From: Giardia intestinalis
Lineage: Eukaryota
Length of the DNA: 64,000 nucleotides
Direction: 5' to 3' (one strand)
Assembly (NCBI GenBank): GCA_000002435.2
Contig: CM018793.1
The position numbers and the translations under genes are program-made. Under the pieces are notes generated by a model. The model saw only the letters and a program-made list of their open reading frames with translations, was not told the DNA's origin and searched no databases. Positions 10,469 through 61,162 of this stretch are shown in pieces (positions within the stretch are counted from its first letter, which is position 1; the number at the start of each line of letters is the position of its first letter).

Positions 10469-11041
10469 TTATACCATCTTATGTCGTGCTACGTATCGTA
10501 CTGGCAGTCTACGCTGCCGGTGCTTGATCTTTGAGCCTCCGGCAAAGATTAATATGAGGCTTGAGAAGAGGGCTAGCACAAGTACAACAAGTGATATCAC
10601 TAAAGTCTTACGAATGGTGGCGAGGTTGCTTTTTAGTTGCCGCCTTTCAAAACAATACAGGCTATCTCCGTCGCGTGCGCAATGGACACATCCAGGTATT
10701 CCAGCAACCACTCCGTGACTTGTTGAGCAAGGAATGCACAAGCCTGATGCCTCCGTAAACGCCGGGTAGTAGCCCTGAGCACATACGGTGCAACCATTTG
10801 GCTCTGCTGATCCGGTGCATGTCTCGCACGATGAATGGCATAGGGTACAGAGCCCCTTATCGAGGAAGTAGCCCTCGGGGCATATAATGGGCGGTTCAGA
10901 AGCGCGATTCCAAACACAGGCGTTGAGCCTCTGGTTAACAATGTATCCGCGCGGACATCTGACGCACTGGCCGTCCTCTTCCTCAATGCACTGAACCTCA
11001 TAGCTCAAAGCTACGCTCCAAATCAGTGCCAGAACAAGCAT
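10469..11041 (-). CDS. Small cysteine-rich type-I membrane protein (HCMP/EGF-like CxxC family), 190 aa
   Basis: ATG at 11041 with acacactagtaaataaaag upstream. Signal peptide MLVLALIWSVALS. About 22 Cys in CxxC and CxC spacing (CVRCPRGY, CTLCHSSCETCTG, CTVCAQGYY, CIPCS, CVHCA). TM VISLVVLVLALFSSLILIFAGG followed by a basic tail. It lacks the CRGKA tail and so is not a VSP. Confidence 0.5.
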   Translation of the reverse strand: MLVLALIWSVALSYEVQCIEEEDGQCVRCPRGYIVNQRLNACVWNRASEPPIICPEGYFLDKGLCTLCHSSCETCTGSAEPNGCTVCAQGYYPAFTEASGLCIPCSTSHGVVAGIPGCVHCARDGDSLYCFERRQLKSNLATIRKTLVISLVVLVLALFSSLILIFAGGSKIKHRQRRLPVRYVARHKMV

Positions 11042-11141: not shown

Positions 11142-14100
11142 ATGAGGTTATTATTGCTTCTTGGCTTAATTATTCAGGGCACCACTGGCGTTATATGTAC
11201 AGATGAGATTCTAATATATGACCATGAGGACTTTGCCTTGATACAAAGCTGTCCCAATTCTAAGTTCCTACTGATGAATGATATTGCCGTTGTGGGCCCC
11301 ATGCCCATAATTCCCATCTTCAAGGGCACCTTTGACGGCCAGGGGTTCTCTGTTGGTGGTATTGTCGTTTCAGAGTTATATGATAAAGCAGCTCTTTTTG
11401 ACACATTTTCAGGGTCAATGCGCAACGTTACCCTCTCAACCATGGTAAGTGTCGTTAATTCAGAAGCTAAATTCATCTCTGGGTTTGCAATAGAGCTTGC
11501 AGATGCGTACTTTTATGACGTGAACATCACTACTACTATTACCGTTAAGGATTGCATAGCAGGAACTGTTATTGGTGGACTTCTCTCTTCCACATCCGAA
11601 ACAGCACCGGGGCTTGTGGTCGCCTCATCTATTACAGTCATGAACTGTGAATGTGTGGTTGGAGGCGCCATTGGCCAATTAGATAGCAACTATACCACCC
11701 TGCTTCCCTCTTACTGGTCTTCTCCCATCACTGTATACTCCACCATACAGTTGTACAATTCTTCTAGTACCGTTGGTGGCTATATTGGGATTTCTGAAAA
11801 AAACATTCACTCCCTTGTCCTCAGGGCCTCAATTGAGGTCTTAGGGAATAGCAGTCACAACTGTGTGATTGGTGGGGTTGTTGGAGACATTAGAGGGGCG
11901 GTTATTCACTCTAATATAACGTTGCTTAAGATGTACGTCAGTGGGTGTGCAAATAATGAAAAGTCTGTTATCGGTGGAATAGGCCCCTCTCTGGTGTGCT
12001 CCTTCCCCAATTGCACCATAGTCGAGGATATTAAGCTGTACATAAACCTCTTCTACACAGATGGTCTCTCAAATGCTTGTATTGGGGGTTGCTTTGGACT
12101 AGTAGACCAAGTGTCTCTTTCTTACCTCCATCTGCGCTTCTCACACGTAGAGGTAGAGTCGCGTTTTGGAGGCATTGCATCCACTATCAACTGCACGAAC
12201 ATTGACCAGGCTGCAATCTCAATTGATTACATTACATGGGTTGACTCGACAACGGATCCATTTTTAATAGGAGGATTTGGGGCTCTCGTAGACAACTACA
12301 CAACCATAGAAAATTCACTGGTTACAGTGGGTGAGGTGAACCTCAACTATACATCCATTAATCCTAGTTACTTTGGTGGGTTCGTGGCAAATGCTTCAAA
12401 GCTCCTCATTTCAAATTCTTACGCAATGATTTTTCTTGCCGTCCTTAATACCTCCCAAGTTGTCGGAGCCAACTCTTCGTTTGGCATTATGCTTGGGCGG
12501 ATCACTTGTAACACTGACGAACAAATACGAATCATTTCATCCTTTGTTGCAGCTGACACAATTCTTGCAAATGGGCATGGTTCGGAGCTCTTTAATATCG
12601 GAGGATTTGCAGGACACCTTCTAAATCCTACCACCAACGGGCAGTGCTTTGTGTTGGCGAATTCGTGGTCATCTATTAAGTTTCGCATCAATGAGATCAG
12701 GAGAGGCTCTGGGTCGCCTTTTGCTGTAGGGGCACTGATAGGTAACCCGGGAGACTCTTCGTTTCTCATCACAGATGTCTATGTCAAGGCTTACTTTGAC
12801 GTGGTTAACATTCAGCAATATAAATATAATAATAACAACAATGATGGAAAGTACAACGCAATAGGAATATTAACAGGGTTCTATAGCGAAAGTGCCGCCA
12901 CACCTACCAAGAAGCAGATGCAGATCTACAGAGTTATATGCCAAGTAGATGTTCTGTTTGAAGAAAACTTTGCAAGAAACATATACTATGTGCCCAGTGA
13001 GCCTGTTTGTCTTCTCTGCAGTGATATCTTCATTACTAATACCTCTAGCCACTTCTATGGATACGGATCAAAGGGAACATACTTGGCCGACCCACTAGAG
13101 ATGCAGCAGCGCGACTTCTACACCAACTTCCTGTTTGGTGAGGACCAGATTTGGCAGTACAACCTCGACTTATACCCCTACCACACCTCCCTTCCGTTCC
13201 TCTTCCACCACCTTTCTGATTTCAGTTCCGATAGTACGAGTATTAGGTTCATCACGCCAATCTGTAATCATCATCTCTGCTGGAACTATACTCATGTGTG
13301 GAATGGGCAGCGCTCAATGACTGTTCTGAATCTTCAATACCTGAGCAACCAATGCTATATTGAGAACTGCATCCTTTGTTCTCCCAGTAGCTCATACGTG
13401 TGTATGAAGTGTGCCAGCGGGTACATTTCAAATGCGAGCGGTGACACCTGCCTAGAGTGTCACAGTAGCTGCATGAAGTGCAGCATCCCTGACCTGTCAA
13501 ATCAATGCATAAGCTGTGCTGTCTATGGAGAGGTCTTCTTTAATGAACGGTGCATTCCCAATCCCTATACCTGCAATCTGCCATATTGTCTTCTCTGCAG
13601 CTTTACCAGTGCACGGAGCTGCGCTGTGTGTGTTCCTGGTAAAGGGGTCCAGGAGGAGAACGGCTACTGCACAATCTGTAAAAGTGATTGCTATACATGC
13701 TCGTTATCTCAAAAGTGCTCTAGCTGTAGTAACTACACAAGGGAGGCTTTACAGGGATTCTGTGAGTATAGTGACACAGGGTGCTACAACACGTGCAAGT
13801 TCTGCAAAAGCGACAATCTTGAAATGTGCTTAAAGTGCAGCAATAACAGCTACACGTTAGATGAATATGGAAACTGCCAGAAACAGCCAATTCCGTTTTG
13901 TATGGTCTATAATTGTGCAATATGCAGCTCAGCAGATAACTTTATTTGTAATGTATGCAAAAACGGATACTACTTGACCAAGAATAGACTGTGCAAAGCC
14001 TGCGAGGAACACTGCGCTGTGTGCTCTTCATACAGCGTCTGCCTCGAGTGCATGAATCCAAAGACCAGGCCCATAGCGGGGATATGTAACTACTCAACTA

Positions 14101-14357
14101 ACTGTAGCATTAGTGGCTGTTCTGTCTGCACACTAGGCGTTGAATCCAGTTGCTTGACGTGCGATACTGGTTACGTTCTAACCGATAACACCTGCCAGCA
14201 GCTGGTAAATAACCATCTAAGACAGGTCACAGTCGCACGAATGACAGCAGCAATCTTGGCGATGATAGCTATTACCATCAACATCGCTTATCCTTTGATA
14301 CGCTATCGCAAGTACTTGAGGGACGAGACTGCTCCTTTGCAACCAGAACCTTCTTAA
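11142..14357 (+). CDS. High-cysteine membrane protein with an N-terminal periodic GG-repeat (beta-solenoid-like) domain, 1071 aa
   Basis: ATG at 11142 (an upstream ATG at 11137 hits a stop after 2 codons). Signal peptide MRLLLLLGLIIQGTTGVIC. Residues ~60-540 hold about 12 repeats of hydrophobic-GG-hydrophobic-x-G at 32-40 aa spacing: SVGGIVV, TVIGGLL, CVVGGAIGQ, TVGGYIGI, CVIGGVVGD, SVIGGIGPS, ACIGGCFGL, RFGGIAST, FLIGGFGAL, YFGGFVANA, FNIGGFAGH, FAVGALIGN. Many N-glycosylation sequons are present. Residues ~760-1020 are dense CxxC/CxC repeats (CILCSPSSSYVCMKCASGY, CLECHSSCMKC, CISCAVYG, CLLCSF, CAVCVPG, CTICKSDCYTC...). TM AAILAMIAITINIAYPLI and a short tail. Confidence 0.65.
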   Translation: MRLLLLLGLIIQGTTGVICTDEILIYDHEDFALIQSCPNSKFLLMNDIAVVGPMPIIPIFKGTFDGQGFSVGGIVVSELYDKAALFDTFSGSMRNVTLSTMVSVVNSEAKFISGFAIELADAYFYDVNITTTITVKDCIAGTVIGGLLSSTSETAPGLVVASSITVMNCECVVGGAIGQLDSNYTTLLPSYWSSPITVYSTIQLYNSSSTVGGYIGISEKNIHSLVLRASIEVLGNSSHNCVIGGVVGDIRGAVIHSNITLLKMYVSGCANNEKSVIGGIGPSLVCSFPNCTIVEDIKLYINLFYTDGLSNACIGGCFGLVDQVSLSYLHLRFSHVEVESRFGGIASTINCTNIDQAAISIDYITWVDSTTDPFLIGGFGALVDNYTTIENSLVTVGEVNLNYTSINPSYFGGFVANASKLLISNSYAMIFLAVLNTSQVVGANSSFGIMLGRITCNTDEQIRIISSFVAADTILANGHGSELFNIGGFAGHLLNPTTNGQCFVLANSWSSIKFRINEIRRGSGSPFAVGALIGNPGDSSFLITDVYVKAYFDVVNIQQYKYNNNNNDGKYNAIGILTGFYSESAATPTKKQMQIYRVICQVDVLFEENFARNIYYVPSEPVCLLCSDIFITNTSSHFYGYGSKGTYLADPLEMQQRDFYTNFLFGEDQIWQYNLDLYPYHTSLPFLFHHLSDFSSDSTSIRFITPICNHHLCWNYTHVWNGQRSMTVLNLQYLSNQCYIENCILCSPSSSYVCMKCASGYISNASGDTCLECHSSCMKCSIPDLSNQCISCAVYGEVFFNERCIPNPYTCNLPYCLLCSFTSARSCAVCVPGKGVQEENGYCTICKSDCYTCSLSQKCSSCSNYTREALQGFCEYSDTGCYNTCKFCKSDNLEMCLKCSNNSYTLDEYGNCQKQPIPFCMVYNCAICSSADNFICNVCKNGYYLTKNRLCKACEEHCAVCSSYSVCLECMNPKTRPIAGICNYSTNCSISGCSVCTLGVESSCLTCDTGYVLTDNTCQQLVNNHLRQVTVARMTAAILAMIAITINIAYPLIRYRKYLRDETAPLQPEPS

Positions 14358-15984
14358 AGCAGGTAGATAGGAAAGCCAGAAGCATCAATCCAGAGAAGAG
14401 GACAAACATCATCCACATGTAGAGCCAGAGTTCTGTTTTCTCCTGTGCTACGAGTACACACGAAGAGTTTCCATGACTATCTATGTTTAGCTGATAACCG
14501 TCTAGACATGTCTGGCACTGCACGCTACTCTCCTCTTTAAAGAAGTAGACACAGTTTGGGATCGTCAGCTCACAAGTATTGTGGGTATTATTCAGGTAGT
14601 AGGTGATTGCGCAGCTTGTGCAAACTATTTCCTGTGTGCTAAGAGCTCCGCTTGCCGGGACACACGTTCGACAATTTGGTACAACCCTCGAGCAGGCAAC
14701 GCACTCTCCATTCTTCAGGTAATATCCAACTATGCACTCTGTGCACTCTATGTCACTATCCCTTGAGATAGTGCACTTTGTGCAGCCAAGGAGATATGCT
14801 CTGCAAAAGACACATGTGCGATTGACCAGGACATACCCATCCATGCAAGCACTACAAGAGTCGATGTGATACTGTTTGCATCTCTTGGGATTACTTTGCA
14901 GCTTTTCACATTTATTGTTCTTCGCGAGATAGTATCCATTTTTACAGGCAAAGCACGTAATGGTCCCGTCATTTAAAGAGCACTCTGCACACTTTTCTAC
15001 CACTGTCGCACATAGCACGCATGTTGCACCAGTACCAGGGTTAATTAAATAGAAGCCGGAAATGCACTCTGTGCAATATGGTTTAAGGCCATATACACAG
15101 CTCTTGCAGCCTCCACTTATCGCCAAACAGCTCCTGCACTTGCCATCGACAAACGTCATCCCCGACTTGCAGACTGTGCAGGTGGGATTCGGGCTTGACA
15201 CACACATTGTACAATAAGGATCTATCTCTGTGCAATTGCTGCAGCTATTCTTGGCAATCATTTGCAGTCCTTCGTTGCATGCAAGGCAAGTTACTTTATC
15301 CTTTGTCTCGAAGGCGCATACCGTACAATTTGGTATGACGTTATGACAAAATTCACATACGTCTGTTGTGGATACTGCAGCCGTTTTCTCAATAAGCCCA
15401 TACCCAAACCTACATTTGATGCAGCGCGGTTCGGAGCCTTCCATTTTACACTCTTCGCAATCAGGAAATATGTCCTCACAGAATACACAGCTGCCATCGT
15501 GGATCACTACATAATTGTCAATACACTTGTTGCAGTTGTAGACCAGCTGCGCTTTTGAGAAGGAGCATTCCAGGCAATTTGGGATCTGAATACGACAGTT
15601 GATGCACTTTGATCCATCGAGCCTGCCTACTGCATAACTATACTCGCAGGTATTACACACTATAGTCTGGTCTTTCAGCTGTATGCAAGAGTCGCAATTA
15701 TTGATATATTCTTCGCACAGGGAACATCCACCCGCAAAGTCAAGAAACGACCTATATGCGCATTCGGTGCATTCTACTGTAAACGAGTCTCTGTAGTAAA
15801 AGCAAGGCAAGAGCCCCGGGCCAGGGGTCTTTGAGCAAACGTCTGGGTCTGTTGGGAAGCTTAAACACGTACACTTAGTACAGTTCACAACAAAGTCCTC
15901 GCACTTAGCAGGAAGGCAGTCGTAGACATCCCTTGTGTCCCCGCCGGTTGCCAGGAGGAGTTCTCGCTGTGGAGGCAGGCCCAT
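14278..15984 (-). CDS. High-cysteine membrane protein (HCMP), ~568 aa
   Basis: The track's first codon (15987) is GTG; the first ATG is at 15984. The protein is almost entirely CxxC/CxC repeats (more than 90 Cys). C-terminal TM WLYMWMMFVLFSGLMLLAFLS and tail CFKKVLVAKEQSRPSSTCDSVSKDKRC. It is not a VSP (no CRGKA). No N-terminal signal peptide is visible (see findings). The last 80 nt of its CDS overlap the convergent gene at 11142..14357. Confidence 0.6.
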   Translation of the reverse strand: MGLPPQRELLLATGGDTRDVYDCLPAKCEDFVVNCTKCTCLSFPTDPDVCSKTPGPGLLPCFYYRDSFTVECTECAYRSFLDFAGGCSLCEEYINNCDSCIQLKDQTIVCNTCEYSYAVGRLDGSKCINCRIQIPNCLECSFSKAQLVYNCNKCIDNYVVIHDGSCVFCEDIFPDCEECKMEGSEPRCIKCRFGYGLIEKTAAVSTTDVCEFCHNVIPNCTVCAFETKDKVTCLACNEGLQMIAKNSCSNCTEIDPYCTMCVSSPNPTCTVCKSGMTFVDGKCRSCLAISGGCKSCVYGLKPYCTECISGFYLINPGTGATCVLCATVVEKCAECSLNDGTITCFACKNGYYLAKNNKCEKLQSNPKRCKQYHIDSCSACMDGYVLVNRTCVFCRAYLLGCTKCTISRDSDIECTECIVGYYLKNGECVACSRVVPNCRTCVPASGALSTQEIVCTSCAITYYLNNTHNTCELTIPNCVYFFKEESSVQCQTCLDGYQLNIDSHGNSSCVLVAQEKTELWLYMWMMFVLFSGLMLLAFLSTCFKKVLVAKEQSRPSSTCDSVSKDKRC

Positions 15985-16145
15985 CACAGAAAATGAAAAG
16001 GACTTCCATGAGGCACTGTCCTCTATTTACTCGCCAGAGTAGAAAATCCTGAATAAGTATTGATACAGTTCTACGTCTTTTGAACACTGAGTTGTGTTTC
16101 ATCTTAACTAAAGTACTGGCCGTCTGTGGAGCAAGTTGGTGGAGA

Positions 16146-19100
16146 TCAAGGTAGGAACTTTGGGAGTGATGTGGTGCTAATGGCTGTCAATGCAGATCCT
16201 AGATGCATTCGAAGAGGAGCAGATTCCGACGAGTACTGCTCCCGGTAGGGTATACCTGCGTGGGGGGCGGGCTGCTTCACTGTTGTGATAATGTATTCAA
16301 GGAGATCTGCAAAATCAAAGTCCTTGAACCGAATGTAGTATTCGATAACATCAAATCCTCCAGCGTCCTTACAAAGTCCTTCTACCTGGGCTAGTAGCGC
16401 AGATGCTTCTCGTTGACGATATTCAGCCGCATAGTGGATTGCACACTTCCCCCTATTATCGCAAATGCCTGCTTCTAGGGGGGACAACAGCCGAATAATG
16501 CTTAGATGGCCGAACCGAGCGGCAGCCATGAGCGCTGTTCTGCCATTTCTATCTTGGAGTCTTGCCTCTGTGTTCATCAACATCTTTACCAAGGCAAGGT
16601 TGTTATTTGCAACAGAGAACATGAGTGCGCTGGCTCCGTTGAATTCAAAGCCTGAGAACCAGACCGTTGCGCTGCAGCGCGCCCCAGCTTCCTTTTGCAT
16701 AAGCATAAGGGCTCCTTCAACGTTTTCTCTGTCGCATGCAAACATCAGCGCAGTCATTTTAAGGACATCTGTACTTCCTGCCTGTGAGAAGAACTTCCTC
16801 ATACGTGGAATGTCATAAGTGGATGCAGCACTCATCAGCGTCGTGACCTCTTTTTCTTTATCGGCGTAAAATTCAGGGGCTGTGCATGGCATCTGCTCTG
16901 GAAGGGAGTCCTTAAGAGTTTCTAAGTACTGCACAACATCCCAATGCTCGTTCTGCAAGGCACGCAGGTATGCCGAGTCATTTGCCTTTGTCACGACACC
17001 AGCTTCGTGGACACACGCTTTGCAGAGCTCCAGGTTCCCTGCGGCGGCGGCAAAGATAAACCTTGTATAACCGTCTGCAGTTGTCTCTATTTTTGAAGAT
17101 GCTGAATGCGTTCTATTGAGGATAGCCTCGTGGTCGAAGAGTACTTCCCTGATGATGTCTGTTGCGTTATCTTTCTTGATAGCGTCACTCTCTTGGGAAA
17201 ATATGGTTGCTGCAAGCTGCTTAGAGCCAAGAAGCATACAAACCTTGGTGAAGTAGAGAGCTCCTTTGCCAGGGTAAAAAGGAACAAGCGCTGTGATGAT
17301 CTCAGACGCCTTTGTTAGACAGGCCTGGACCACAATGGTGTCCCAGTACTTCTCTATTATCGGACGACTGTGCCTAGCAATATACGATATTGTGTCCCCA
17401 GAGACATAATTCTGAATAGCCATTGACAACGCATTAACCTTGGAAGGATCCTTGTTAATTATTAGGAGATTAGATTGGTAGGGCACAAGAGCCTTAATTA
17501 TGCTATCATTCCTTAGCAGGGTTGCAGCCATTATCTCTGTTGTGCAGTACGAGTTCGTACAGTATGATATCTCCGTTGGAGTAGACTTCTCATCCAGTGG
17601 TAGCTTTCGTACCAGCCGTTTTACCAAGTGAAAATTGTCTGTTATAATCGCATACCGAAGTGAAGCCTGCCTCACCTTGTCGCTGTCAGAATAAAGAAGC
17701 TCCAGCTGGTCAACCACTTTGGCCAGCGGTACAACTCTGTACATCTCTCTGATGGAGCTGACATGTCTCAGCATGCTGATTGCGTTGTGAAGCTCTTGGC
17801 TATACCTATCTGTATGAGGTTCACGCGAGACTTGGGATTGAGTTCGCTGCATACCAAAGTTGTATTCCGTGTCCACCATGCTGAGATCACCCACCCCAAT
17901 CATAGACTCCATCTGAATCGAAAGCGACGGGGTCTCGTTGGCTGTTCCGTTCGAACCGGTCACCGAGGTATTTGGATTTTCTTGTTGCTCCTGGTCTACC
18001 AAAATATGTCTGGGCAGGGATGGATGCACAGGGTTGCTATTCTTAGTAAAGTTAGCAATGCTCACAGTAGCCCTTGGGCCATCTTTTGAGGTCACCAACT
18101 CAGGAAACGATTCGTCGTTGGGGATGGTAAAGGATGGACATGTCATGGACAGAAAACTATGTTCTACCTTGTCGCTCTTCTCGTAGTCTTCTTCTCTACC
18201 TTTATGGATAGGCCTGGTATCGCAAGAGTTTTTCTTCGACTCAGTAGCTTCGCTGGGCTGGCACTTGTGCTTGGTGCGTGCATAATTGCTTACCTGACTT
18301 AGGCTGATACTAGACAAGAAGTCACTAGTATTGATGGACAACATGCTGCCCATGTCTGTGTTGCTGCGCTGATGTCGTTTGTTGAATACGGTACTCAGCA
18401 CACGGTTCATTTGGACCGGAGTCATGAGGCTTGGGGGTAGACCCATTGGCGTGTGTGCCGTGCTCTGTAGCTCCGTGAGAGTCGTCATGATGGTGTGCAC
18501 TTTCTCCAGCAACCGCCTCATGATGTCATCTCTCATGAAAGCACTGGAGTCCTCCTCTGTGTCATCGTGAAGAAGAGAGTCCAAAGAAATAGACTCTCGT
18601 AGAAGCATGCTCATGATGTCTATCTTTATACAACCACGGGTATCCTCCATGTGCGGTAAAGAAGACACATAGTAGATGTTGTTCATGGAGAGATGAGTAC
18701 AGACTACCTCGGCAATCTGGAGACTTATGGAAAGAAGGTAGGTACAGAAAAGCAGGAGCTGCCCAAATATGGCCCAAAGCTCCTCTTCGTAAAGATAAAG
18801 ATTATTCTGCGCAGCTACGAACACATGTTCGCTAAGATATATGCCTTTGTAGTTCGGAACTATAAATATAATTTCCCGCTTCTTCAAGGAAAGCTTATAG
18901 CGCAAAATGGTCATCAATGTGAAGTGATCCAGCTTTGAAAGGTACTGGGCACATTTTAAAAGGAGATCTTCCTCGTACTTGGAACTGGCGTTATAAATGA
19001 AGACGTGCTGAAGCAGATTGAAGGAGTTGGACGGGGTACACTTAAATGAATACACGTCCTTCGGCCTTCTGACTTGCTTAAGAAAGGGCCTGAGGCCTGT

Positions 19101-19172
19101 TCTCAGCCCAGGCTTCGCCGTGCTAGGGTGAAGCACAACATGCTTAAGCTCAGTCGGCACACACGTGGCCAT
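16146..19172 (-). CDS. Ankyrin-repeat protein with a degenerate N-terminal kinase-like domain (Giardia NEK/21.1-type), ~1008 aa
   Basis: Track start is TTG; the first ATG is at 19172 (MATCVPTELKHVV...), with tttattttagaaagaaagtttgttg upstream. The C-terminal third is clear ankyrin repeats (GYTRFIFAAAAGNLELCKACV, MTALMFACDRENVEGALMLM, SALMFSVANNNLALVKMLM, GRTALMAAARFGHLSIIRLL, GKCAIHYAAEYRQREASALL). The N-terminal ~200 aa loosely resemble a protein-kinase fold (HLSMNNIYYVS ... CIKIDIMSM) but lack the catalytic motifs. Confidence 0.55.
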   Translation of the reverse strand: MATCVPTELKHVVLHPSTAKPGLRTGLRPFLKQVRRPKDVYSFKCTPSNSFNLLQHVFIYNASSKYEEDLLLKCAQYLSKLDHFTLMTILRYKLSLKKREIIFIVPNYKGIYLSEHVFVAAQNNLYLYEEELWAIFGQLLLFCTYLLSISLQIAEVVCTHLSMNNIYYVSSLPHMEDTRGCIKIDIMSMLLRESISLDSLLHDDTEEDSSAFMRDDIMRRLLEKVHTIMTTLTELQSTAHTPMGLPPSLMTPVQMNRVLSTVFNKRHQRSNTDMGSMLSINTSDFLSSISLSQVSNYARTKHKCQPSEATESKKNSCDTRPIHKGREEDYEKSDKVEHSFLSMTCPSFTIPNDESFPELVTSKDGPRATVSIANFTKNSNPVHPSLPRHILVDQEQQENPNTSVTGSNGTANETPSLSIQMESMIGVGDLSMVDTEYNFGMQRTQSQVSREPHTDRYSQELHNAISMLRHVSSIREMYRVVPLAKVVDQLELLYSDSDKVRQASLRYAIITDNFHLVKRLVRKLPLDEKSTPTEISYCTNSYCTTEIMAATLLRNDSIIKALVPYQSNLLIINKDPSKVNALSMAIQNYVSGDTISYIARHSRPIIEKYWDTIVVQACLTKASEIITALVPFYPGKGALYFTKVCMLLGSKQLAATIFSQESDAIKKDNATDIIREVLFDHEAILNRTHSASSKIETTADGYTRFIFAAAAGNLELCKACVHEAGVVTKANDSAYLRALQNEHWDVVQYLETLKDSLPEQMPCTAPEFYADKEKEVTTLMSAASTYDIPRMRKFFSQAGSTDVLKMTALMFACDRENVEGALMLMQKEAGARCSATVWFSGFEFNGASALMFSVANNNLALVKMLMNTEARLQDRNGRTALMAAARFGHLSIIRLLSPLEAGICDNRGKCAIHYAAEYRQREASALLAQVEGLCKDAGGFDVIEYYIRFKDFDFADLLEYIITTVKQPAPHAGIPYREQYSSESAPLRMHLGSALTAISTTSLPKFLP

Positions 19173-31142: not shown

Positions 31143-33002
31143 ATGCTTTGGACAGACATACTTCATCTTTGTCAGCAGTCATCTCTTCCTAGCAGGCTTG
31201 AGGGAAGATTTACAGCGGCTGTCTCCGCCTGTGATAATCACCTTCTCCTGAGATGTCTGCTGTCTGCCGCACAGTATGGAAACGTCCGGGCTGTGGAAAT
31301 CATTAACAAGGCCACACAGGATCGTATCTATACTACCAAGCATACTGCTCTATCTGTTGCCATAGAGTACCACCATGAAGCCATAGCCAAAATCTTGCTC
31401 CCAACCGAGGCTTGCATCACAAAGGTTACTGTGGCTATGAGCCGAGTAATAATGGGCGATCAGCTGCACAGTGTCGAGGCCCAAATAACGGCGTCAAAAG
31501 ACTTATGTTTTAAGGAGCTGTCCGAAAGAGATGTAGCGGGTCGGAGTCTCGCCGAGTACTGTATCCTCTTTCGACGCACGGCCCTTCTCACGAGAATATT
31601 GGAGCAAATAATGGAATTTCATTTGGACACAGACCTACTTCGCACTGCCTACCACGAGCCAATCATCTTTCTTGCCATAAGGGAGAGAGACCTAGACAGC
31701 TTTGTTGCTTTGTATGACTTCTGTTGTCGCCACGGGTTAAACCGCAGCATAGATAATCAGAGTTTGAAGAGTTACTCTATGTCCACGGGAGCTTCAGCCA
31801 TTGTGTGCTGGCTATCCAAACGACCGGAGCCTGGAGGTCATTTAAGCACTACATTGACCATTGAAACGCAGAGAAAATCTGTTACTATCATAGGATTAGC
31901 AGACTGTGGCCCAGGTTTTAGCAAAGTAGCTGGACGTCCACAGTTAGAAGGGAGCTCCGAACTTCAGCAATCCGATCCCGCACTCACGCCTGCCAGTGAT
32001 AAGGAAAAATCTACTTGCCTTTCCGAGAAGTCTGAGCCTTTAGTGTCCATGCTTTCACGTGAGTTAGAGGGATGTGCAATGAGGAATCACGACAGTACGT
32101 CTGCTTGCGATAAACACATCAAGGAATCTGGCCTCTCTTATTCATCCATGCTCAACCAGCTAGCTCTAATTGACAAAGACGAAGCTCTGCAAAGGAGTGT
32201 TCACTCGTTCATACATACAAATTCGGTGATAATGAATATCGTGCGGGCTAGCTTCTACAGCAATACGTCAGGCACTCTAGAGACAGATACGAGCCAACAC
32301 AGACCTCTGTTGGCAGAGCTGTCTGCCGTAAAGCTCTGTGGGATGCATCCGGTGTTTTCGATGAACATCATAGTGAAGCCTCCTGGTGTAGTTGCAGTGC
32401 AAGAGGCTCTTTTACAGAGTGAGGAGGTACTGGGTCTGACTCCATTCAGTGATCCACAACGCTTCACCCGATTAAACCCCCTGAACTATGATGATGCACT
32501 AGACACACTAGAGTGGTTTTTGAATACACCCAGTAGTGACATGGGTAAGATCTTTTTGCAGAACAAACTGGCTGTGGAAGTGCCATTTAACCGGTCCCAC
32601 AGCGTGGTTCGGCTTGAAACAGGTATCGATCTGATAATGCACAGTAATTCACCTTACTTCGAGATGGTTCCTTCGTGCGATGTGGAATGTAGGACTGAAG
32701 ATGGTCGCCTACTTGTTTTGGCGAGCTTCAACAGTGAGCTAAAGGAAGTTGTCGCACATATGCAGGACAGATATGTTTTTATAAGTGACTTTCTCATTAT
32801 GGGATTGAAGGGCAGATATGTTCGCGACTTGCTTAAGACAGGCAGGCGTTGGCCACGTAGCGGTCAATATGCATTATGCACCAAGCATGCTCGCTGCCAA
32901 CACTTATACTCTTCAGTGTGTGAACCAATGTGTGCATACACTGAAATAGAGCAGTTACTGCAGTACACGAGGCGGAGGATTTCCAGCGGGCAGAAGGTCT
33001 AG
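31143..33002 (+). CDS. Hypothetical protein with weak N-terminal ankyrin-like repeats, 619 aa
   Basis: ATG at 31143 with gcgctaaaaaatcgctcgg upstream. The N-terminus (LLRCLLSAAQYGNVRAVEIINKAT...HTALSVAIEYHHEAIAKILL) is ankyrin-like. The remainder is unrecognised. The last 48 nt overlap the convergent kinase-like gene. Confidence 0.45.
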   Translation: MLWTDILHLCQQSSLPSRLEGRFTAAVSACDNHLLLRCLLSAAQYGNVRAVEIINKATQDRIYTTKHTALSVAIEYHHEAIAKILLPTEACITKVTVAMSRVIMGDQLHSVEAQITASKDLCFKELSERDVAGRSLAEYCILFRRTALLTRILEQIMEFHLDTDLLRTAYHEPIIFLAIRERDLDSFVALYDFCCRHGLNRSIDNQSLKSYSMSTGASAIVCWLSKRPEPGGHLSTTLTIETQRKSVTIIGLADCGPGFSKVAGRPQLEGSSELQQSDPALTPASDKEKSTCLSEKSEPLVSMLSRELEGCAMRNHDSTSACDKHIKESGLSYSSMLNQLALIDKDEALQRSVHSFIHTNSVIMNIVRASFYSNTSGTLETDTSQHRPLLAELSAVKLCGMHPVFSMNIIVKPPGVVAVQEALLQSEEVLGLTPFSDPQRFTRLNPLNYDDALDTLEWFLNTPSSDMGKIFLQNKLAVEVPFNRSHSVVRLETGIDLIMHSNSPYFEMVPSCDVECRTEDGRLLVLASFNSELKEVVAHMQDRYVFISDFLIMGLKGRYVRDLLKTGRRWPRSGQYALCTKHARCQHLYSSVCEPMCAYTEIEQLLQYTRRRISSGQKV

Positions 33003-33830
33003 GACTGTTCTAGAGCTGCTATACACGCGCTGATCCTCGAGGATCTCATCAACTGTTATTCTTTCTGTAGGATCAAGGGACAGCATTCGCTGGCAAAGTT
33101 TTGATAGCTCAGGGGTTTGGAGCGCTATGTCTGAGATTTGAAATTCCTTTCTGCTCTCCTGAACGGCATCCACGAACAGAAGGCTACAAGTGCACATTTC
33201 ATACACCAGGCATCCTAACGCCCAAACGTCACTTGCCGTTGTTAGTACTCTGTCTTCTAGCTCTGGAGGAGCATACGCCCTACTCCCGTAAACCTGTAAT
33301 TGCTCCTTGTCAGCCAGAAGGGTCAGGGGGCACGCAAAGTCGAAGCCCGAAAGGAGGACCGTACCATCGTCTGCCACGAAGACTGACTTGCTCGTTATGT
33401 TCCGGTGCAAGAAACCGGTGTAGTCCCCAAAGGTAGCTGAGGTGTGCAGGTACTGGAGTGCTCGGGAGAGAGCGTTCATGACAGAATAAATGAATTGGAC
33501 TGAGGGAAGTGCATTGCTTTTCCGGAACCGCTCGAGCACGTCGGAGAGAGATCCGTGCTTGTATAGTGGAAAGACTAGCCAAAGGGTATTATCGTCGTAG
33601 TCTGCGCTGTACAGCACGGGCGAGTCAATGTTAGAATGTTCCAAGGAGTCCAGCAGAGGGCCCTCTTGGCGTAGCATATGAAAGTAAACGGAGTCATCGC
33701 TCAGCTCACTGCAGTCGACCTCTCTCACAGCATAGATGTTGCTTGTGGCAGGATCGATGGCTCTATATATCACCGAGTGGGCGCCGATCCAAATCGTCTC
33801 GGTGCAGAGGAGATCCTCGAGGCTCCTCAT
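32955..33830 (-). CDS. NEK-type protein kinase-like protein, predicted catalytically inactive (pseudokinase), 291 aa
   Basis: The track ORF 32955..34076 begins in RPL4 sequence; the first ATG after the RPL4 stop is at 33830 (MRSLEDLLCTETIWIGAHSVIYRAID...). A kinase fold is recognisable: YGSRAYAPPE (APE motif) and DVWALGCLVYEM (DxWxxG). The catalytic residues are substituted: HRNITSKS for HRDLKxxN, GFDFA for DFG, YAVREV for VAIK (Lys to Arg), and there is no GxGxxG loop. Confidence 0.6.
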   Translation of the reverse strand: MRSLEDLLCTETIWIGAHSVIYRAIDPATSNIYAVREVDCSELSDDSVYFHMLRQEGPLLDSLEHSNIDSPVLYSADYDDNTLWLVFPLYKHGSLSDVLERFRKSNALPSVQFIYSVMNALSRALQYLHTSATFGDYTGFLHRNITSKSVFVADDGTVLLSGFDFACPLTLLADKEQLQVYGSRAYAPPELEDRVLTTASDVWALGCLVYEMCTCSLLFVDAVQESRKEFQISDIALQTPELSKLCQRMLSLDPTERITVDEILEDQRVYSSSRTVLDLLPAGNPPPRVLQ

Positions 33831-57258: not shown

Positions 57259-60200
57259 ATGGAGCCACGCTACTCCTGCTTTGTAAAGACTGGCATTTGC
57301 AGTGCCGGTCTACTTGAGACGGGGTCATCCGTCGAAAGCTTTCTGATCACCACAGCTGCGGGCACGCTCTCTGTATTGACGCCAGATTCGTCTGGGTCTT
57401 ACCGTTCTAAACCCTTAGAATTTGACCCTCAGAAAGTTGTGGCAGCAACGCCAGCGCTAAGGCCAAACAGTGCCTTTCTGGATTTGGCCTTTTCGGCTAG
57501 TTCTTCTGGGGTCATGTCCGTCAATCTTTCCGAAGATTGCCTCTACACGGTTAATGACCTCGTGTGTGATGCAACCCTTTTATCCGCTGTTTCTATGTGC
57601 CGACTCACCACTGCGGAAAGATGCTTTGTTTCCATGCTACGCAAGAATAAGTCTAATGTGGCCAGTGCGATTCCACCCCTAGTCCTCCTAGCCCAGCAGT
57701 GCAATGTTTCAGCGTATAGGATACCAACTACCGCTAGCCTGACGCAAAATCAAACAGAAACTTTCTGGGTTCCCACGGGAGACGTTGTGGTGCACATGGC
57801 CACCTTTTTACCACTAGCCTCTCACCTGAAGATGAGTGAGGGTGATTCGGAAGTAGACGAGGCTGAGCTAGATTACTTTGTGGTTTCACGGGATCGGTAT
57901 GGGCGTTACTTTCGTGGAGAAGAGCTTTTAGCAGAAAAGCGGCTCCCAACCCATGTCCTTCGCATGAAGACATTGGGCCGGTTTATTCTCTTGTTTCTAG
58001 CAGACCACTCCCTCTATCTCTTGTACCTTAATGAAGTGTCAATACTTCAACTGCATAGATTCCCTAGTGATTGTTCGCTGATCGATGCGTGTCTCCTCGA
58101 AAAGCCATCCAGCAACATCTTACTAGAAAAGCGTCCACTTTCCACTAGTACATCCTTCAAAGCCCTCGAAGCAAAGACAATAGAAGAGAGCTTTGACCTA
58201 AATCCCACCACAGCGAGCACTAGTAAAACTGCAAACAGATCAACTGCCGATGGAATACCACTAATAGTGAAGCTCCAGCTTACCAAGATTACATTTAGTG
58301 TGCTCACGTTCCACCCCACTGCTGTGGACAGAGGCATGCCTTCAGTCATGGAGCTACCAATCCACGACTTCCCCATTGCGCTTCCTGTTACAGAAACTGC
58401 ATTGTCCACGAAATCAGTTAAATGTACGATCGACTCCGGCACCTTGTCCGCTTTACCAGACAAGTCGCTGCTGTGGATCATTGCTAGCGACACCCTTCTT
58501 ACTTTTTCTGTTAGGGTATTTACTGACATTTATTCTATGCTACTAGCGTATAACTTCAGAGGACATATCTGCAATTCAAGCCACGATTTTTCGCAATCCA
58601 ATGACGTGCACGATGCAATGCATTTGCTCGCCAAGAAGCGCACACTGATGGCTCAGTTGCAACTTTTGCGGCAACAACAAGTGTCCAACTCTGCACAAGA
58701 GTCTTGTACTGACGCCGACAAGGATCAGGGGAACGATGGTTCCAGGGAATATACATTTGGAGACCTGCTCCGTGAAGCACGATTGTTGGGTATTTATTGC
58801 GCAGATGTAGAGTCTCGTTCGATGCTCCTTTCACTGAACTGCTCTCCTGGCCACTACCTAATTAAAGTCGCCCTTCCTGAGCAACTATTTGTACACAGTT
58901 TTGCTATATTAGATCCTAATACTGGAGCTGCGAAATCAGTATTTGCACCACTTAACGTTAGAGATGCTAGTTCTGAATTCAGAAAGATCTGCTGCGGTTC
59001 TGGAGACAGCTCCGTCGCAGCGTCTCTGGGGCCTATTGTACGCGATAGTAGTCTGCACATGTCGACACGGTTCTTAAATATGGAGCATCGTATCCAGCAT
59101 GCGCTGCTTCTCAATGGACATGATCATGCAATAGATGTGGTCAACGACACGACGGTCATGGAAATAGACAAGGTCCGCAACGTCTTTCTTTCTGAGCTAG
59201 CTCGAACTCATCTTTCAGAGAAGTATACCACATCTCTTCCATCCTCTCACCATATCTCACATCACCTTAACAAAAACGCACAGCCAGAGTCAATTGTGGA
59301 ATTACCTATCTCGTCAGACATCATTGAAGAATATGCTGGATCAACTATTATCCTGCAACTAGCAGTAACACAGACTAATTTATCCTCGGCAACTCATGGC
59401 ATTTCAATCCCAATTTCCGTAAGCCTGCCAGTGTGTCCAATGATGCGCCTCTGTTCCAGTTCCTTTTGCAGTACATTGGCCTCCTTTGAAGGGGGATCTT
59501 TGATGGTTCTCTTGGAAGAAGTCGCGAGTCTGACAATGAACTTTAACAACTATAAGATTTTAAGCACCAAACTGGCGGACATTCTTTGCAAGCCTATTCT
59601 TATAGCACTGCCAGACGATCACGATGCCCTTGATGGCAAGTTAGAGCAAGCTAACGAATTTGTTTTCTTTGTGGAGAGTTGTAACTCAACAAGTCTTCTA
59701 CAGCTCCTCTCTGAAGCGTCCGATGATGATCTACCCCTTCCCAAATTGTTAGGCTACTCCGTGGAAAGCAAGTCACTGGGCCTCCTAGCAAAGACTAGAA
59801 TAGCCACAGTGTTTAGAGTACATTGCTTCTTTGAGAATCTTCAACTTACCAAGGTGCGGCTATCTGGATTAGACATCACTCTCTTAATAAGCTTTGCGCA
59901 GAAACTTGCAACTGTATTGCTTCCTAACGGAGCGGATGTGACCTTGTTTCGTGAATTGTGCTCATCACTCAGATTTAGCCCTAAGGCGCGCTCTTTCTTG
60001 ACTGCAGTCAGGTCTATGTACAGAAGCTCTCAGAATCAATTAGGGCATGTTTCTGCCGGGCTTTCCGAGCTTTCGTCTCGCATGCTTCTCGACTGCGACC
60101 AAACTCTCGATCTCACCAGTGTGTGCTTTTATCGAAGAGCCTTAGATCAGCTTCAGCATCTTAAAAATAGCATACGTATTACTATTAAGCAAGCTCTGGA

Positions 60201-60354
60201 CGCACAGGAAGCCAATAAAGCTTTTGGTTATTGCCAGGCATACCTAGACTCACTAGAAGCATCTCTCTTATTTATCAACAGCTCCAAGGTAGATGACATC
60301 AAAGCGTGGATGAACTCAGACAGCAGTCCAGCCGTTTTAGAGTGGGGCGAGTGA
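57259..60354 (+). CDS. Hypothetical protein, 1031 aa
   Basis: ATG at 57259. The long ORF has a typical start context. No domain was recognised by eye. Its stop codon lies 1 nt from the stop of the convergent NIF3 gene. Confidence 0.45.
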   Translation: MEPRYSCFVKTGICSAGLLETGSSVESFLITTAAGTLSVLTPDSSGSYRSKPLEFDPQKVVAATPALRPNSAFLDLAFSASSSGVMSVNLSEDCLYTVNDLVCDATLLSAVSMCRLTTAERCFVSMLRKNKSNVASAIPPLVLLAQQCNVSAYRIPTTASLTQNQTETFWVPTGDVVVHMATFLPLASHLKMSEGDSEVDEAELDYFVVSRDRYGRYFRGEELLAEKRLPTHVLRMKTLGRFILLFLADHSLYLLYLNEVSILQLHRFPSDCSLIDACLLEKPSSNILLEKRPLSTSTSFKALEAKTIEESFDLNPTTASTSKTANRSTADGIPLIVKLQLTKITFSVLTFHPTAVDRGMPSVMELPIHDFPIALPVTETALSTKSVKCTIDSGTLSALPDKSLLWIIASDTLLTFSVRVFTDIYSMLLAYNFRGHICNSSHDFSQSNDVHDAMHLLAKKRTLMAQLQLLRQQQVSNSAQESCTDADKDQGNDGSREYTFGDLLREARLLGIYCADVESRSMLLSLNCSPGHYLIKVALPEQLFVHSFAILDPNTGAAKSVFAPLNVRDASSEFRKICCGSGDSSVAASLGPIVRDSSLHMSTRFLNMEHRIQHALLLNGHDHAIDVVNDTTVMEIDKVRNVFLSELARTHLSEKYTTSLPSSHHISHHLNKNAQPESIVELPISSDIIEEYAGSTIILQLAVTQTNLSSATHGISIPISVSLPVCPMMRLCSSSFCSTLASFEGGSLMVLLEEVASLTMNFNNYKILSTKLADILCKPILIALPDDHDALDGKLEQANEFVFFVESCNSTSLLQLLSEASDDDLPLPKLLGYSVESKSLGLLAKTRIATVFRVHCFFENLQLTKVRLSGLDITLLISFAQKLATVLLPNGADVTLFRELCSSLRFSPKARSFLTAVRSMYRSSQNQLGHVSAGLSELSSRMLLDCDQTLDLTSVCFYRRALDQLQHLKNSIRITIKQALDAQEANKAFGYCQAYLDSLEASLLFINSSKVDDIKAWMNSDSSPAVLEWGE

Positions 60355-60355
60355 A

Positions 60356-61162
60356 CTAAACATCACACACTATAGAGACATGCTCTACTGTTATAGAAAG
60401 CTGCTTAGAAATGAGGTCCCCGATAGCCCATAGGCCTGGCTGTTCCGATCTCCAATGGCCCAGCGCTGCCATGCTAATCCCCCGGTCCCGCGCAGTAGAG
60501 ATAGCGCTCTCCTTGGGCTCTCCAAATATAAATAAATCCACGTCTTCTATCTCGTCAATCAGGCCTGAAGAGCCTCCAGAACAAATATAGACGCGCTTTG
60601 GTGGGCTATTAATTGCAAAGGAAGAATTAAACGGCCAAACTCTTGTACCGTAAAACGTCGACGAACAAAGATCATTTTGTTGAGGAGTGCGTGTATCCAC
60701 CTCGTAGGCCCTCCTATCACAAAACTCGCTCAACCTTCGTATTATCTCCAATCCAGACAGATTGCCGGGATTTTCACAGTAGCAGCCGCACGAGTAAAAC
60801 TTCTCCAGCAGAAGCCCCGCAGCCTTACAGAGCTGGGCATTGTGTCCAATAATAGGATGAGCATCCATCGGGAGGTGATATGCAAATAGGTTTATGTCAT
60901 GTTTGAGGAGAGGAGTCAACCGCTTCTTTATCGAATCGGTTACTCGAAGGAATGATTTCCCAAAGAACCCATGATGCACAAGTATTGCATCAGCGTTTCT
61001 ATGGACAGCTTCTGCGATAAGGTCACCACAGAGGGACACACCTGTCACCAAGGTCCTAATTTCCTTTCTTCCTTCTACCTGGAGTCCGTTGTACTGACCA
61101 TCTGGCTGCTCTTCATACACCTCCGACAGAAACTGCAACAACTGGTCTCTGGAAACTGACAT
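60356..61162 (-). CDS. NIF3-family (DUF34, dinuclear metal centre) protein, 268 aa
   Basis: ATG at 61162 with cattgtaaataaaaggatagcat upstream. NIF3 signatures: ADAILVHHGFF (HHP-type metal site), LFAYHLPMDAHPIIGHNAQL and AALGHWRSEQPG (C-terminal His/Glu metal ligands). Confidence 0.7.
   Translation of the reverse strand: MSVSRDQLLQFLSEVYEEQPDGQYNGLQVEGRKEIRTLVTGVSLCGDLIAEAVHRNADAILVHHGFFGKSFLRVTDSIKKRLTPLLKHDINLFAYHLPMDAHPIIGHNAQLCKAAGLLLEKFYSCGCYCENPGNLSGLEIIRRLSEFCDRRAYEVDTRTPQQNDLCSSTFYGTRVWPFNSSFAINSPPKRVYICSGGSSGLIDEIEDVDLFIFGEPKESAISTARDRGISMAALGHWRSEQPGLWAIGDLISKQLSITVEHVSIVCDV

Follow-up and report, generated by a model that had tools for sequence, protein, structure and literature searches.

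A conserved 80-nucleotide coding overlap between two convergent cysteine-rich membrane protein genes of Giardia intestinalis

The stretch of 64,000 nucleotides (nt) of contig CM018793.1 of Giardia intestinalis (assembly GCA_000002435.2) that was analysed here, called the window in the following, harbours two convergent open reading frames (ORFs), 11142-14357 on the plus strand and 14278-15984 on the minus strand, which have the 80 nt from 14278 to 14357 in common at their 3' ends. An earlier note, made from the letters of the window alone, had described this tail-to-tail overlap, and both ORFs and both stop codons were indeed located at these positions; the two C-terminal peptides reported in that note match the ORF translations exactly. 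Both translations are identical to proteins of G. intestinalis WB (ATCC 50803) with the adjacent accessions KAE8305437 and KAE8305438, and both genes are present with the same coordinates in the 2007 annotation and in the curated 2020 annotation, a re-annotation which deliberately dropped spurious overlapping ORFs on the basis of RNA-seq and homologues. Window positions 13,500-15,500 correspond to about 139,150-141,150 of scaffold CH991768. The locus represents an overlap of the coding sequences (CDSs) of two genuine convergent genes, both under purifying selection. The two genes, their overlapping coordinates and genome-wide transcript overlap are already known; a literature search retrieved no paper that discusses this overlap, though its coordinates were already public, and what is added here is its conservation across assemblages and the frame-asymmetric constraint upon it. 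The features of the locus, with lengths in amino acids (aa) and transmembrane segments abbreviated as TM, are as follows.

11142-14357, plus strand: membrane protein gene, 1071 aa, ATG start, TAA stop; KAE8305437.1 / XP_001708828.1, 'High cysteine membrane protein' (HCMP)
14278-15984, minus strand: HCMP Group 2 gene GL50803_15475, 568 aa from the ATG at 15984, TGA stop; the mechanical ORF list begins one codon earlier at a GTG
14278-14357, both strands: convergent CDS-CDS overlap, 80 nt, reading frames on opposite strands
14241-14300, plus strand: predicted TM of the plus protein, residues ~1034-1053, MTAAILAMIAITINIAYPLI; Kyte-Doolittle maximum 1.98 over 19 residues
14356-14430, minus strand: predicted TM of the minus protein, residues ~519-543, LWLYMWMMFVLFSGLMLLAFLSTCF; Kyte-Doolittle maximum 2.19
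14355-14357, plus strand: stop codon TAA of the plus gene, falling in minus codons F543-K544, where the minus TM has its cytoplasmic end
14278-14280, minus strand: stop codon TGA of the minus gene, falling in plus TM codons I1046-N1047
14278-14320, plus strand: half of the overlap in which the plus frame prevails; plus I-N-I-A-Y-P-L-I-R-Y-R-K-Y-L (TM end and conserved juxtamembrane motif) versus minus distal tail S-S-T-C-D-S-V-S-K-D-K-R-C-stop
14321-14357, no strand assigned: half of the overlap without codon periodicity; plus distal tail R-D-E-T-A-P-L-Q-P-E-P-S-stop versus minus proximal tail K-K-V-L-V-A-K-E-Q-S-R-P, constraint loose on both

In the overlap, first codon positions of the plus frame stand opposite first positions of the minus frame, second opposite third and third opposite second. 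The shared 80 nt encode the last ~8 TM residues and the entire 18-aa tail of the plus protein and, on the other strand, the entire 25-aa tail of the minus protein, so that only the plus gene has TM codons within the overlap. That both C-termini consist of a TM segment and a tail, as the earlier note had proposed, is borne out by hydropathy, with one strong segment in each protein.

The plus protein, which ends in ...IRYRKYLRDETAPLQPEPS, is composed of a signal-like hydrophobic N-terminal segment (MRLLLLLGLII), a beta-rich repeat domain of ~700 aa with x-GG-x motifs, a CxxC region of ~330 aa, the TM segment and the 18-aa tail. Residues ~1-700 (window 11142-13250, plus strand) are not cysteine-rich and appear as all-beta repeats with a recurring x-GG-x. 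The AlphaFold model of the protein has a mean pLDDT of 44.6, with values of 60-80 only at residues ~95-440, and a Foldseek search against PDB with this model gave nothing significant, the top matches all being beta-solenoid adhesins/autotransporters with E > 0.7. Pfam has zero matches for either protein of the pair, and relatives of the plus protein were found by a word-indexed search, and then by a profile search, only in the G. duodenalis complex.

The minus protein, ending in ...AKEQSRPSSTCDSVSKDKRC, possesses 31 CxxC motifs, a C-terminal TM segment and the 25-aa tail. Membership in the HCMP family has been defined by a length of at least 400 aa, at least 10% cysteine, at least 20 CxC/CxxC motifs and type I topology, with a signal peptide at the N-terminus and a TM segment at the C-terminus (Davids et al., 2006). 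The composition of the minus protein, 568 aa with 13.2% cysteine, 31 CxxC and one CxC, lies within these limits, and its counts of 0 GGCY, 31 CxxC and 1 CxC are identical to those of ORF 15475 (Group 2) in the same study (Davids et al., 2006), which, together with the position between 15474 and 15476, identifies it as GL50803_15475. The assignment of both genes to the HCMPs in the earlier note consequently stands for the minus gene, but only by annotation for the plus gene, the product of which has 20 CxxC motifs but with 6.3% cysteine falls below the cysteine threshold (Davids et al., 2006). Neither protein has the end that marks a VSP, a TM segment followed by the five-residue tail CRGKA, the two tails being RYRKYLRDETAPLQPEPS and KKVLVAKEQSRPSSTCDSVSKDKRC. 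Judged by cysteine content (6.3%) and the missing CRGKA, the labels 'HCMP' and 'VSP' both fit the plus protein poorly, and the 'VSP' names carried by orthologues of the plus gene are by this measure misnomers.

GL50803_15475 is expressed, with bulk values of 119, 118, 91, 140 and 46 FPKM (fragments per kilobase per million) in trophozoites, at three encystation time points and in cysts, which are among the highest in the HCMP family. Its N-terminus (MGLPPQRELLLATGGD..., window 15984-15922) shows no hydrophobic signal peptide in any of the five lineages compared (see below), with a Kyte-Doolittle value of -0.29 for the first 20 residues. As there is no hydrophobic N-terminus, yet a TM segment only 25 aa from the C-terminal end, the topology of the protein, type I or tail-anchored-like, is uncertain, and to call its tail cytoplasmic is an assumption. 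According to a preprint, cysteine-rich ORFs without a signal peptide are classed as pseudogenes; for GL50803_15475 this rule is contradicted by the selection data given below. An out-of-frame upstream ORF (MEVLFIFC...) was considered as the source of a lost signal peptide and rejected because its hydrophobic read-out is that of a conserved T-rich DNA motif and the frame differs between lineages; its ATG is absent in P15, L004 and L006. Each of the five lineages retains this T-rich motif (CCTTTTCATTTTCTGT-like; window ~15987-16006, minus strand) 2-12 nt upstream of the ATG of GL50803_15475, and the position of the motif coincides with the expected end (16006-16018) of the published 3' untranslated region (UTR), 128-140 nt long, of the upstream ankyrin gene. 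It could act as the promoter/initiator of the HCMP Group 2 gene, as the U-rich region that follows the ankyrin cleavage site, or as both at once.

Conservation was assessed in five lineages, WB, P15 (assemblage E), an assemblage-B-like lineage, in which the plus protein is 96% identical to an assemblage B protein, and two further lineages from SRA/ENA sequencing-read runs. The gene order Copine, ankyrin, HCMP Group 2 gene and convergent 1071-aa gene is syntenic in all four lineages other than WB, and the overlap measures 80 nt in P15, 83 nt in the B-like lineage and 80 nt in each of the two further lineages, with unchanged phase throughout. Orthologues of the minus protein share 80, 63, 62 and 58-59% identity and have 565-568 aa, those of the plus protein share 86, 73 and 68% identity and have 1067-1082 aa, and the orthologues of each protein terminate at a matching aligned position. 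The plus stop, which is either TAA or TGA, coincides with the minus codon pair [F/L]-K in each of the five lineages. The deviating length in the B-like lineage (L002/L003 4700-4708) is due to an N to H substitution in the plus TM which abolishes the minus stop, so that the minus ORF is one codon longer; this case directly shows that a substitution in one gene resets the end of the other.

Outside of the overlap, the ratio of non-synonymous to synonymous differences (pN/pS, Nei-Gojobori estimates) is 0.21-0.33 for the minus gene (542 codon columns) and 0.13-0.22 for the C-terminal 383 codon columns (669-1052) of the plus gene, and saturation of synonymous sites is reached between the deeper lineages. 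Every CxxC cysteine of the minus protein from residue 35 on is invariant across the lineages. The question raised in the earlier note, whether either ORF is a pseudogene, can be answered in the negative for both, given pN/pS values of 0.13-0.33 and an expression of GL50803_15475 of 46-140 FPKM.

Within the overlap, no single-nucleotide change is silent in both frames (0 of 196 possible ones), and pN/pS ranges from 0.17 to 0.63 in the plus frame and from 0.57 to 4.8 in the minus frame. The high values in the minus frame arise because its 'synonymous' rate collapses, with a pS of 0.06-0.37 within versus 0.47-0.76 outside of the overlap. Sites were classed by window position modulo 3, remainder 0 being first position in both frames (plus1/minus1), remainder 1 second in plus and third in minus (plus2/minus3) and remainder 2 third in plus and second in minus (plus3/minus2), and the mean pairwise difference was as follows.

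Plus-only flank: plus1/minus1 0.19; plus2/minus3 0.16; plus3/minus2 0.49
Minus-only flank: plus1/minus1 0.31; plus2/minus3 0.45; plus3/minus2 0.19
Whole overlap: plus1/minus1 0.22; plus2/minus3 0.18; plus3/minus2 0.32

With values of 0.22, 0.18 and 0.32, the periodicity of the overlap is therefore that of the plus frame. It is found in 14278-14320, where the plus-strand motif AYPL(I/V)RYRKY(L) faces the distal tail SSTCDSVSKDKRC of the minus protein; there the differences at first, second and third plus positions are 0.19, 0.09 and 0.36 (third versus second, Mann-Whitney p = 0.0066) and 10 of the observed changes are synonymous in the plus frame, 3 in the minus frame. In 14321-14357, the corresponding values are 0.25, 0.29 and 0.27 (p = 0.84), and of the 22 changes observed there, 12 are non-synonymous for both proteins. 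Over the whole overlap, 16 variants are synonymous in plus and non-synonymous in minus, 7 are the reverse and 16 are non-synonymous in both, the opportunities for the three kinds of change being 51, 48 and 97 (binomial p = 0.097). The codon periodicity of the plus frame indicates selection at the level of the protein rather than of the RNA. In our reading, the plus juxtamembrane motif would be the selected feature and the minus distal tail its mirror image, with the rest of both tails weakly constrained.

An overlap of this kind is an ordinary product of the compact Giardia genome and not unusual. Stop-free antisense windows of 26 codons in the same phase make up 25% of such windows in the plus gene and 33% in the minus gene, and an open antisense frame of the length of the overlap is statistically unremarkable. 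The conservation of the overlap, unlike its open antisense frame, is on the other hand, by the comparison of the five lineages, beyond what would be expected by chance. Cytoplasmic tails of HCMPs/CRMPs are 1 to 60 aa long according to a preprint. [quoted passage not shown] In Giardia muris, 441 genes (9.5%) overlap a neighbour by 1-327 bp, with a mean of 21 bp (Xu et al., 2020; PMC7641422). The window itself contains about five convergent pairs, two of which overlap and one of which abuts.

With respect to the RNA, the two mRNAs are necessarily complementary over at least 80 nt because any mRNA of either gene that includes the full CDS includes the shared segment. The proposal in the earlier note that the transcripts are mutually antisense is upheld to this extent, as complementarity of at least 80 nt follows from the CDSs, but transcripts ending before the overlap, which the note had named as a refutation, cannot apply to functional mRNAs. 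The Giardia poly(A) signal AGURAA is used by ~60% of genes 13-15 nt before the cleavage site, and ~40% use other signals. A scan of the window for AGTRAA identified none within 400 nt of either stop; for the plus gene the first one lies at +1,438 nt, for the minus gene at +1,959 nt. Nor did the five lineages reveal a candidate poly(A) hexamer that keeps its position downstream of either stop. The same scan detects the signal of GL50803_15476 115 nt past its stop, and is credible because this position agrees with the 3' UTR of 128/140 nt listed for that gene in published data. The 3' ends of the pair would then either be formed at non-canonical signals or be located deep within the partner gene, and the complementarity is probably longer than 80 nt because no canonical AGURAA occurs within 1.4-1.9 kb downstream of either gene. 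Intramolecular structure of the overlap RNA, compared with shuffled sequence, is not unusual on either strand (z = 0.84 and -0.04).

These data are explained best, and in our judgement with good confidence, by an overlap that is derived from compaction and evolutionarily frozen, situated in low-constraint tails and with one frame dominant. Genome compaction in the G. duodenalis complex would have left two convergent genes for single-TM cysteine-rich proteins with 80 bp of mutual overlap at their 3' ends, each stop sitting inside constrained codons of the partner, that of the plus gene in the [F/L]-K pair at the boundary of the minus TM and that of the minus gene in the I-N of the plus TM. The creation of the overlap would have been cheap because 25-33% of the 26-codon antisense windows are already open, and it would be tolerated because it is located in the least constrained parts of both proteins, the short C-terminal tails. 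Selection in the overlap would act mainly on the plus juxtamembrane motif AYPL(I/V)RYRKY, with the final ~13 minus residues as a passenger read-out of the opposite strand and both tails drifting in the remaining ~37 nt. Because a separation of the genes requires duplication of the shared segment, the overlap would be hard to undo and would therefore persist across assemblages. The complementarity of the mRNAs would be the general state of convergent pairs in Giardia and not a dedicated regulatory device. Origin via compaction or ORF extension, the minus tail as a passenger and long 3' UTRs are those parts of this account that we infer.

Several observations weigh against it. The frame asymmetry rests on 80 sites in five lineages, the tests over the whole overlap are marginal (p = 0.079 and p = 0.097), and the overlap was divided into halves post hoc. 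The divergence of the overlap, 0.239, is slightly, not significantly (p = 0.096), lower than that of the flanks with 0.279 and 0.317; a divergence near that of the flanks means that double constraint is weak, and constraint at the RNA level is still compatible with it. The minus stop is held within one codon in the five lineages, which could reflect selection on the length of the tail and not hitch-hiking. Sequence searches found no outgroup, such as G. muris, from which an ancestral non-overlapping state could be reconstructed; a profile search with the HCMP Group 2 alignment gave only generic CxxC-repeat matches that end before the TM and tail. The expression evidence covers the minus gene only, which bears on co-expression of the pair.

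The first alternative to a compaction-derived overlap is a regulatory sense-antisense module, in which mRNA pairing, dicing or polymerase interference couples or limits the two surface proteins. The unavoidable complementarity of at least 80 nt, the longer antisense read-through predicted by the lack of nearby canonical poly(A) signals, the maintenance of the overlap in five lineages and the RNA interference (RNAi) machinery of Giardia, said to be implicated in VSP control, are all compatible with it. Nevertheless, such a module is considered improbable, as transcript overlap, found in 81% of tail-to-tail pairs, is not specific to this pair, and GL50803_15475, steadily at ~100 FPKM and near the top of the HCMP family, is not visibly silenced. 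The two proteins are not VSPs either, and mutually exclusive accumulation of transcripts is, according to a preprint, one of the traits that only VSPs have. Furthermore, in one half of the overlap the conservation follows the codon periodicity of the plus frame, in the other half it is unremarkable, and the RNA is not unusually structured on either strand. The idea in the earlier note that the overlap would supply double-stranded RNA for an RNAi-type regulation of surface antigens finds no specific support, the trait being generic, the proteins non-VSP and the conservation coding-driven; a literature search found no small-RNA or perturbation reports for this locus.

A related possibility, to which we give a very low probability, is that overlap and read-through have been kept through the whole history of the G. 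duodenalis complex and that the mRNA duplex or the collision of convergent polymerases sets the relative dosage of two invariant surface or membrane proteins. If true, this would be a hard-wired antisense coupling distinct from VSP switching, and the locus would provide a simple natural test bed for regulation by natural antisense transcripts in cis (cis-NATs) in a minimal RNAi system.

Just as doubtful is a shared element for 3'-end processing or termination, with the overlap kept for non-canonical signals used by both transcription units. While neither gene has an AGTRAA nearby and alternative signals serve ~40% of Giardia genes, the comparison of the five lineages shows no conserved candidate hexamer past either stop, conservation tracks the coding frames and the RNA forms no stable structure. 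An annotation artefact or a decaying gene, with one of the 3' ends untranslated, for example if the minus gene were a pseudogene, is hardly credible at all: the absence of a hydrophobic N-terminus in GL50803_15475, the pseudogene rule of the preprint and a minus-frame pN/pS of ~1 within the overlap would fit, but the minus gene has a pN/pS of 0.21-0.33 over 542 codon columns, its CxxC cysteines from residue 35 on are invariant despite saturated synonymous sites, it is expressed at 46-140 FPKM, its product has 565-568 aa in every lineage and the curated 2020 annotation kept both genes.

Read as a compaction-derived overlap with a dominant plus frame, the locus offers a clean and conserved case of dual-strand coding in a eukaryote and would show where such overlaps are tolerated, namely in cytoplasmic tails that are short and under weak constraint, one of the two frames being dominant; otherwise, its significance is mainly one of annotation hygiene. 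The apparent conservation of the GL50803_15475 C-terminus would largely echo the juxtamembrane motif of the neighbour. With respect to experimental work, non-strand-specific RNA-seq, quantitative PCR amplicons, morpholinos and CRISPRi guides placed at 14278-14357 affect both genes, C-terminal tagging or knock-out of either gene changes its partner, and the designation of orthologues of the 1071-aa gene as 'VSP' should be regarded as wrong.

Concerning the surroundings of the pair, other ORFs of the window match GL50803_15473, GL50803_15474, an ankyrin protein, Copine I, GL50803_17546, a NEK kinase, ribosomal protein L4, GL50803_9238 and a Nif3-related protein. GL50803_15476 ('Protein 21.1') is presumably the ankyrin ORF 16146-19172, as the order of the identifiers and the fit of the poly(A) signal suggest. 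Head-to-head with the plus gene, with 100 nt between the start codons, lies a gene for a 190-aa cysteine-rich membrane protein (10469-11041, minus strand; KAE8305436.1), annotated as HCMP and named 'VSP' in P15, which makes the locus a cluster of three cysteine-rich genes. A second convergent CDS overlap, of 48 nt (32955-33002), is formed by GL50803_17546 (31143-33002, plus strand) and the NEK kinase gene (32955-33830, minus strand), the product of which has 291 aa in the 2020 annotation and 369 aa in the older one; this pair likewise has no AGTRAA within about 680-750 nt of its stops. GL50803_9238 (57259-60354, plus strand) and the Nif3-related gene (60356-61162, minus strand) are convergent with a single base between their stop codons.

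The overlap can finally be compared with known systems. In the convergent cis-NAT pair SRO5/P5CDH of Arabidopsis, small RNAs (nat-siRNAs) and reciprocal regulation have reportedly been demonstrated; the Giardia pair resembles it in that coding genes on opposite strands overlap at their 3' ends with a capacity for forming double-stranded RNA, but the expression data at hand do not point to silencing. Giardia possesses Dicer, Argonaute and RNA-dependent RNA polymerase (RdRP), and work by Prucca and colleagues in 2008 is said to have implicated RNAi in the control of VSPs, with antisense RNA made by RdRP from many co-transcribed VSP mRNAs. The pair shares with this system the cysteine-rich nature of the surface protein genes and the host equipped with the three proteins; unlike VSPs, which carry CRGKA, its two genes lack CRGKA, are single-copy orthologues across assemblages and at least one of them is constitutively expressed. 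Closest at the level of transcripts are the convergent neighbours of WB, the mRNAs of which are mutually antisense at their 3' ends (Franzen et al., 2013; PMC3610916), whereby 3' UTRs enter the neighbouring gene there, whereas here the CDSs themselves overlap and complementarity is independent of the cleavage site. The CDS-CDS overlaps of G. muris have been ascribed to genome streamlining (Xu et al., 2020; PMC7641422); in comparison, the overlap described here exceeds with 80 nt their mean of 21 bp, and its conservation in at least five G. duodenalis lineages and its frame-specific constraint have been measured.

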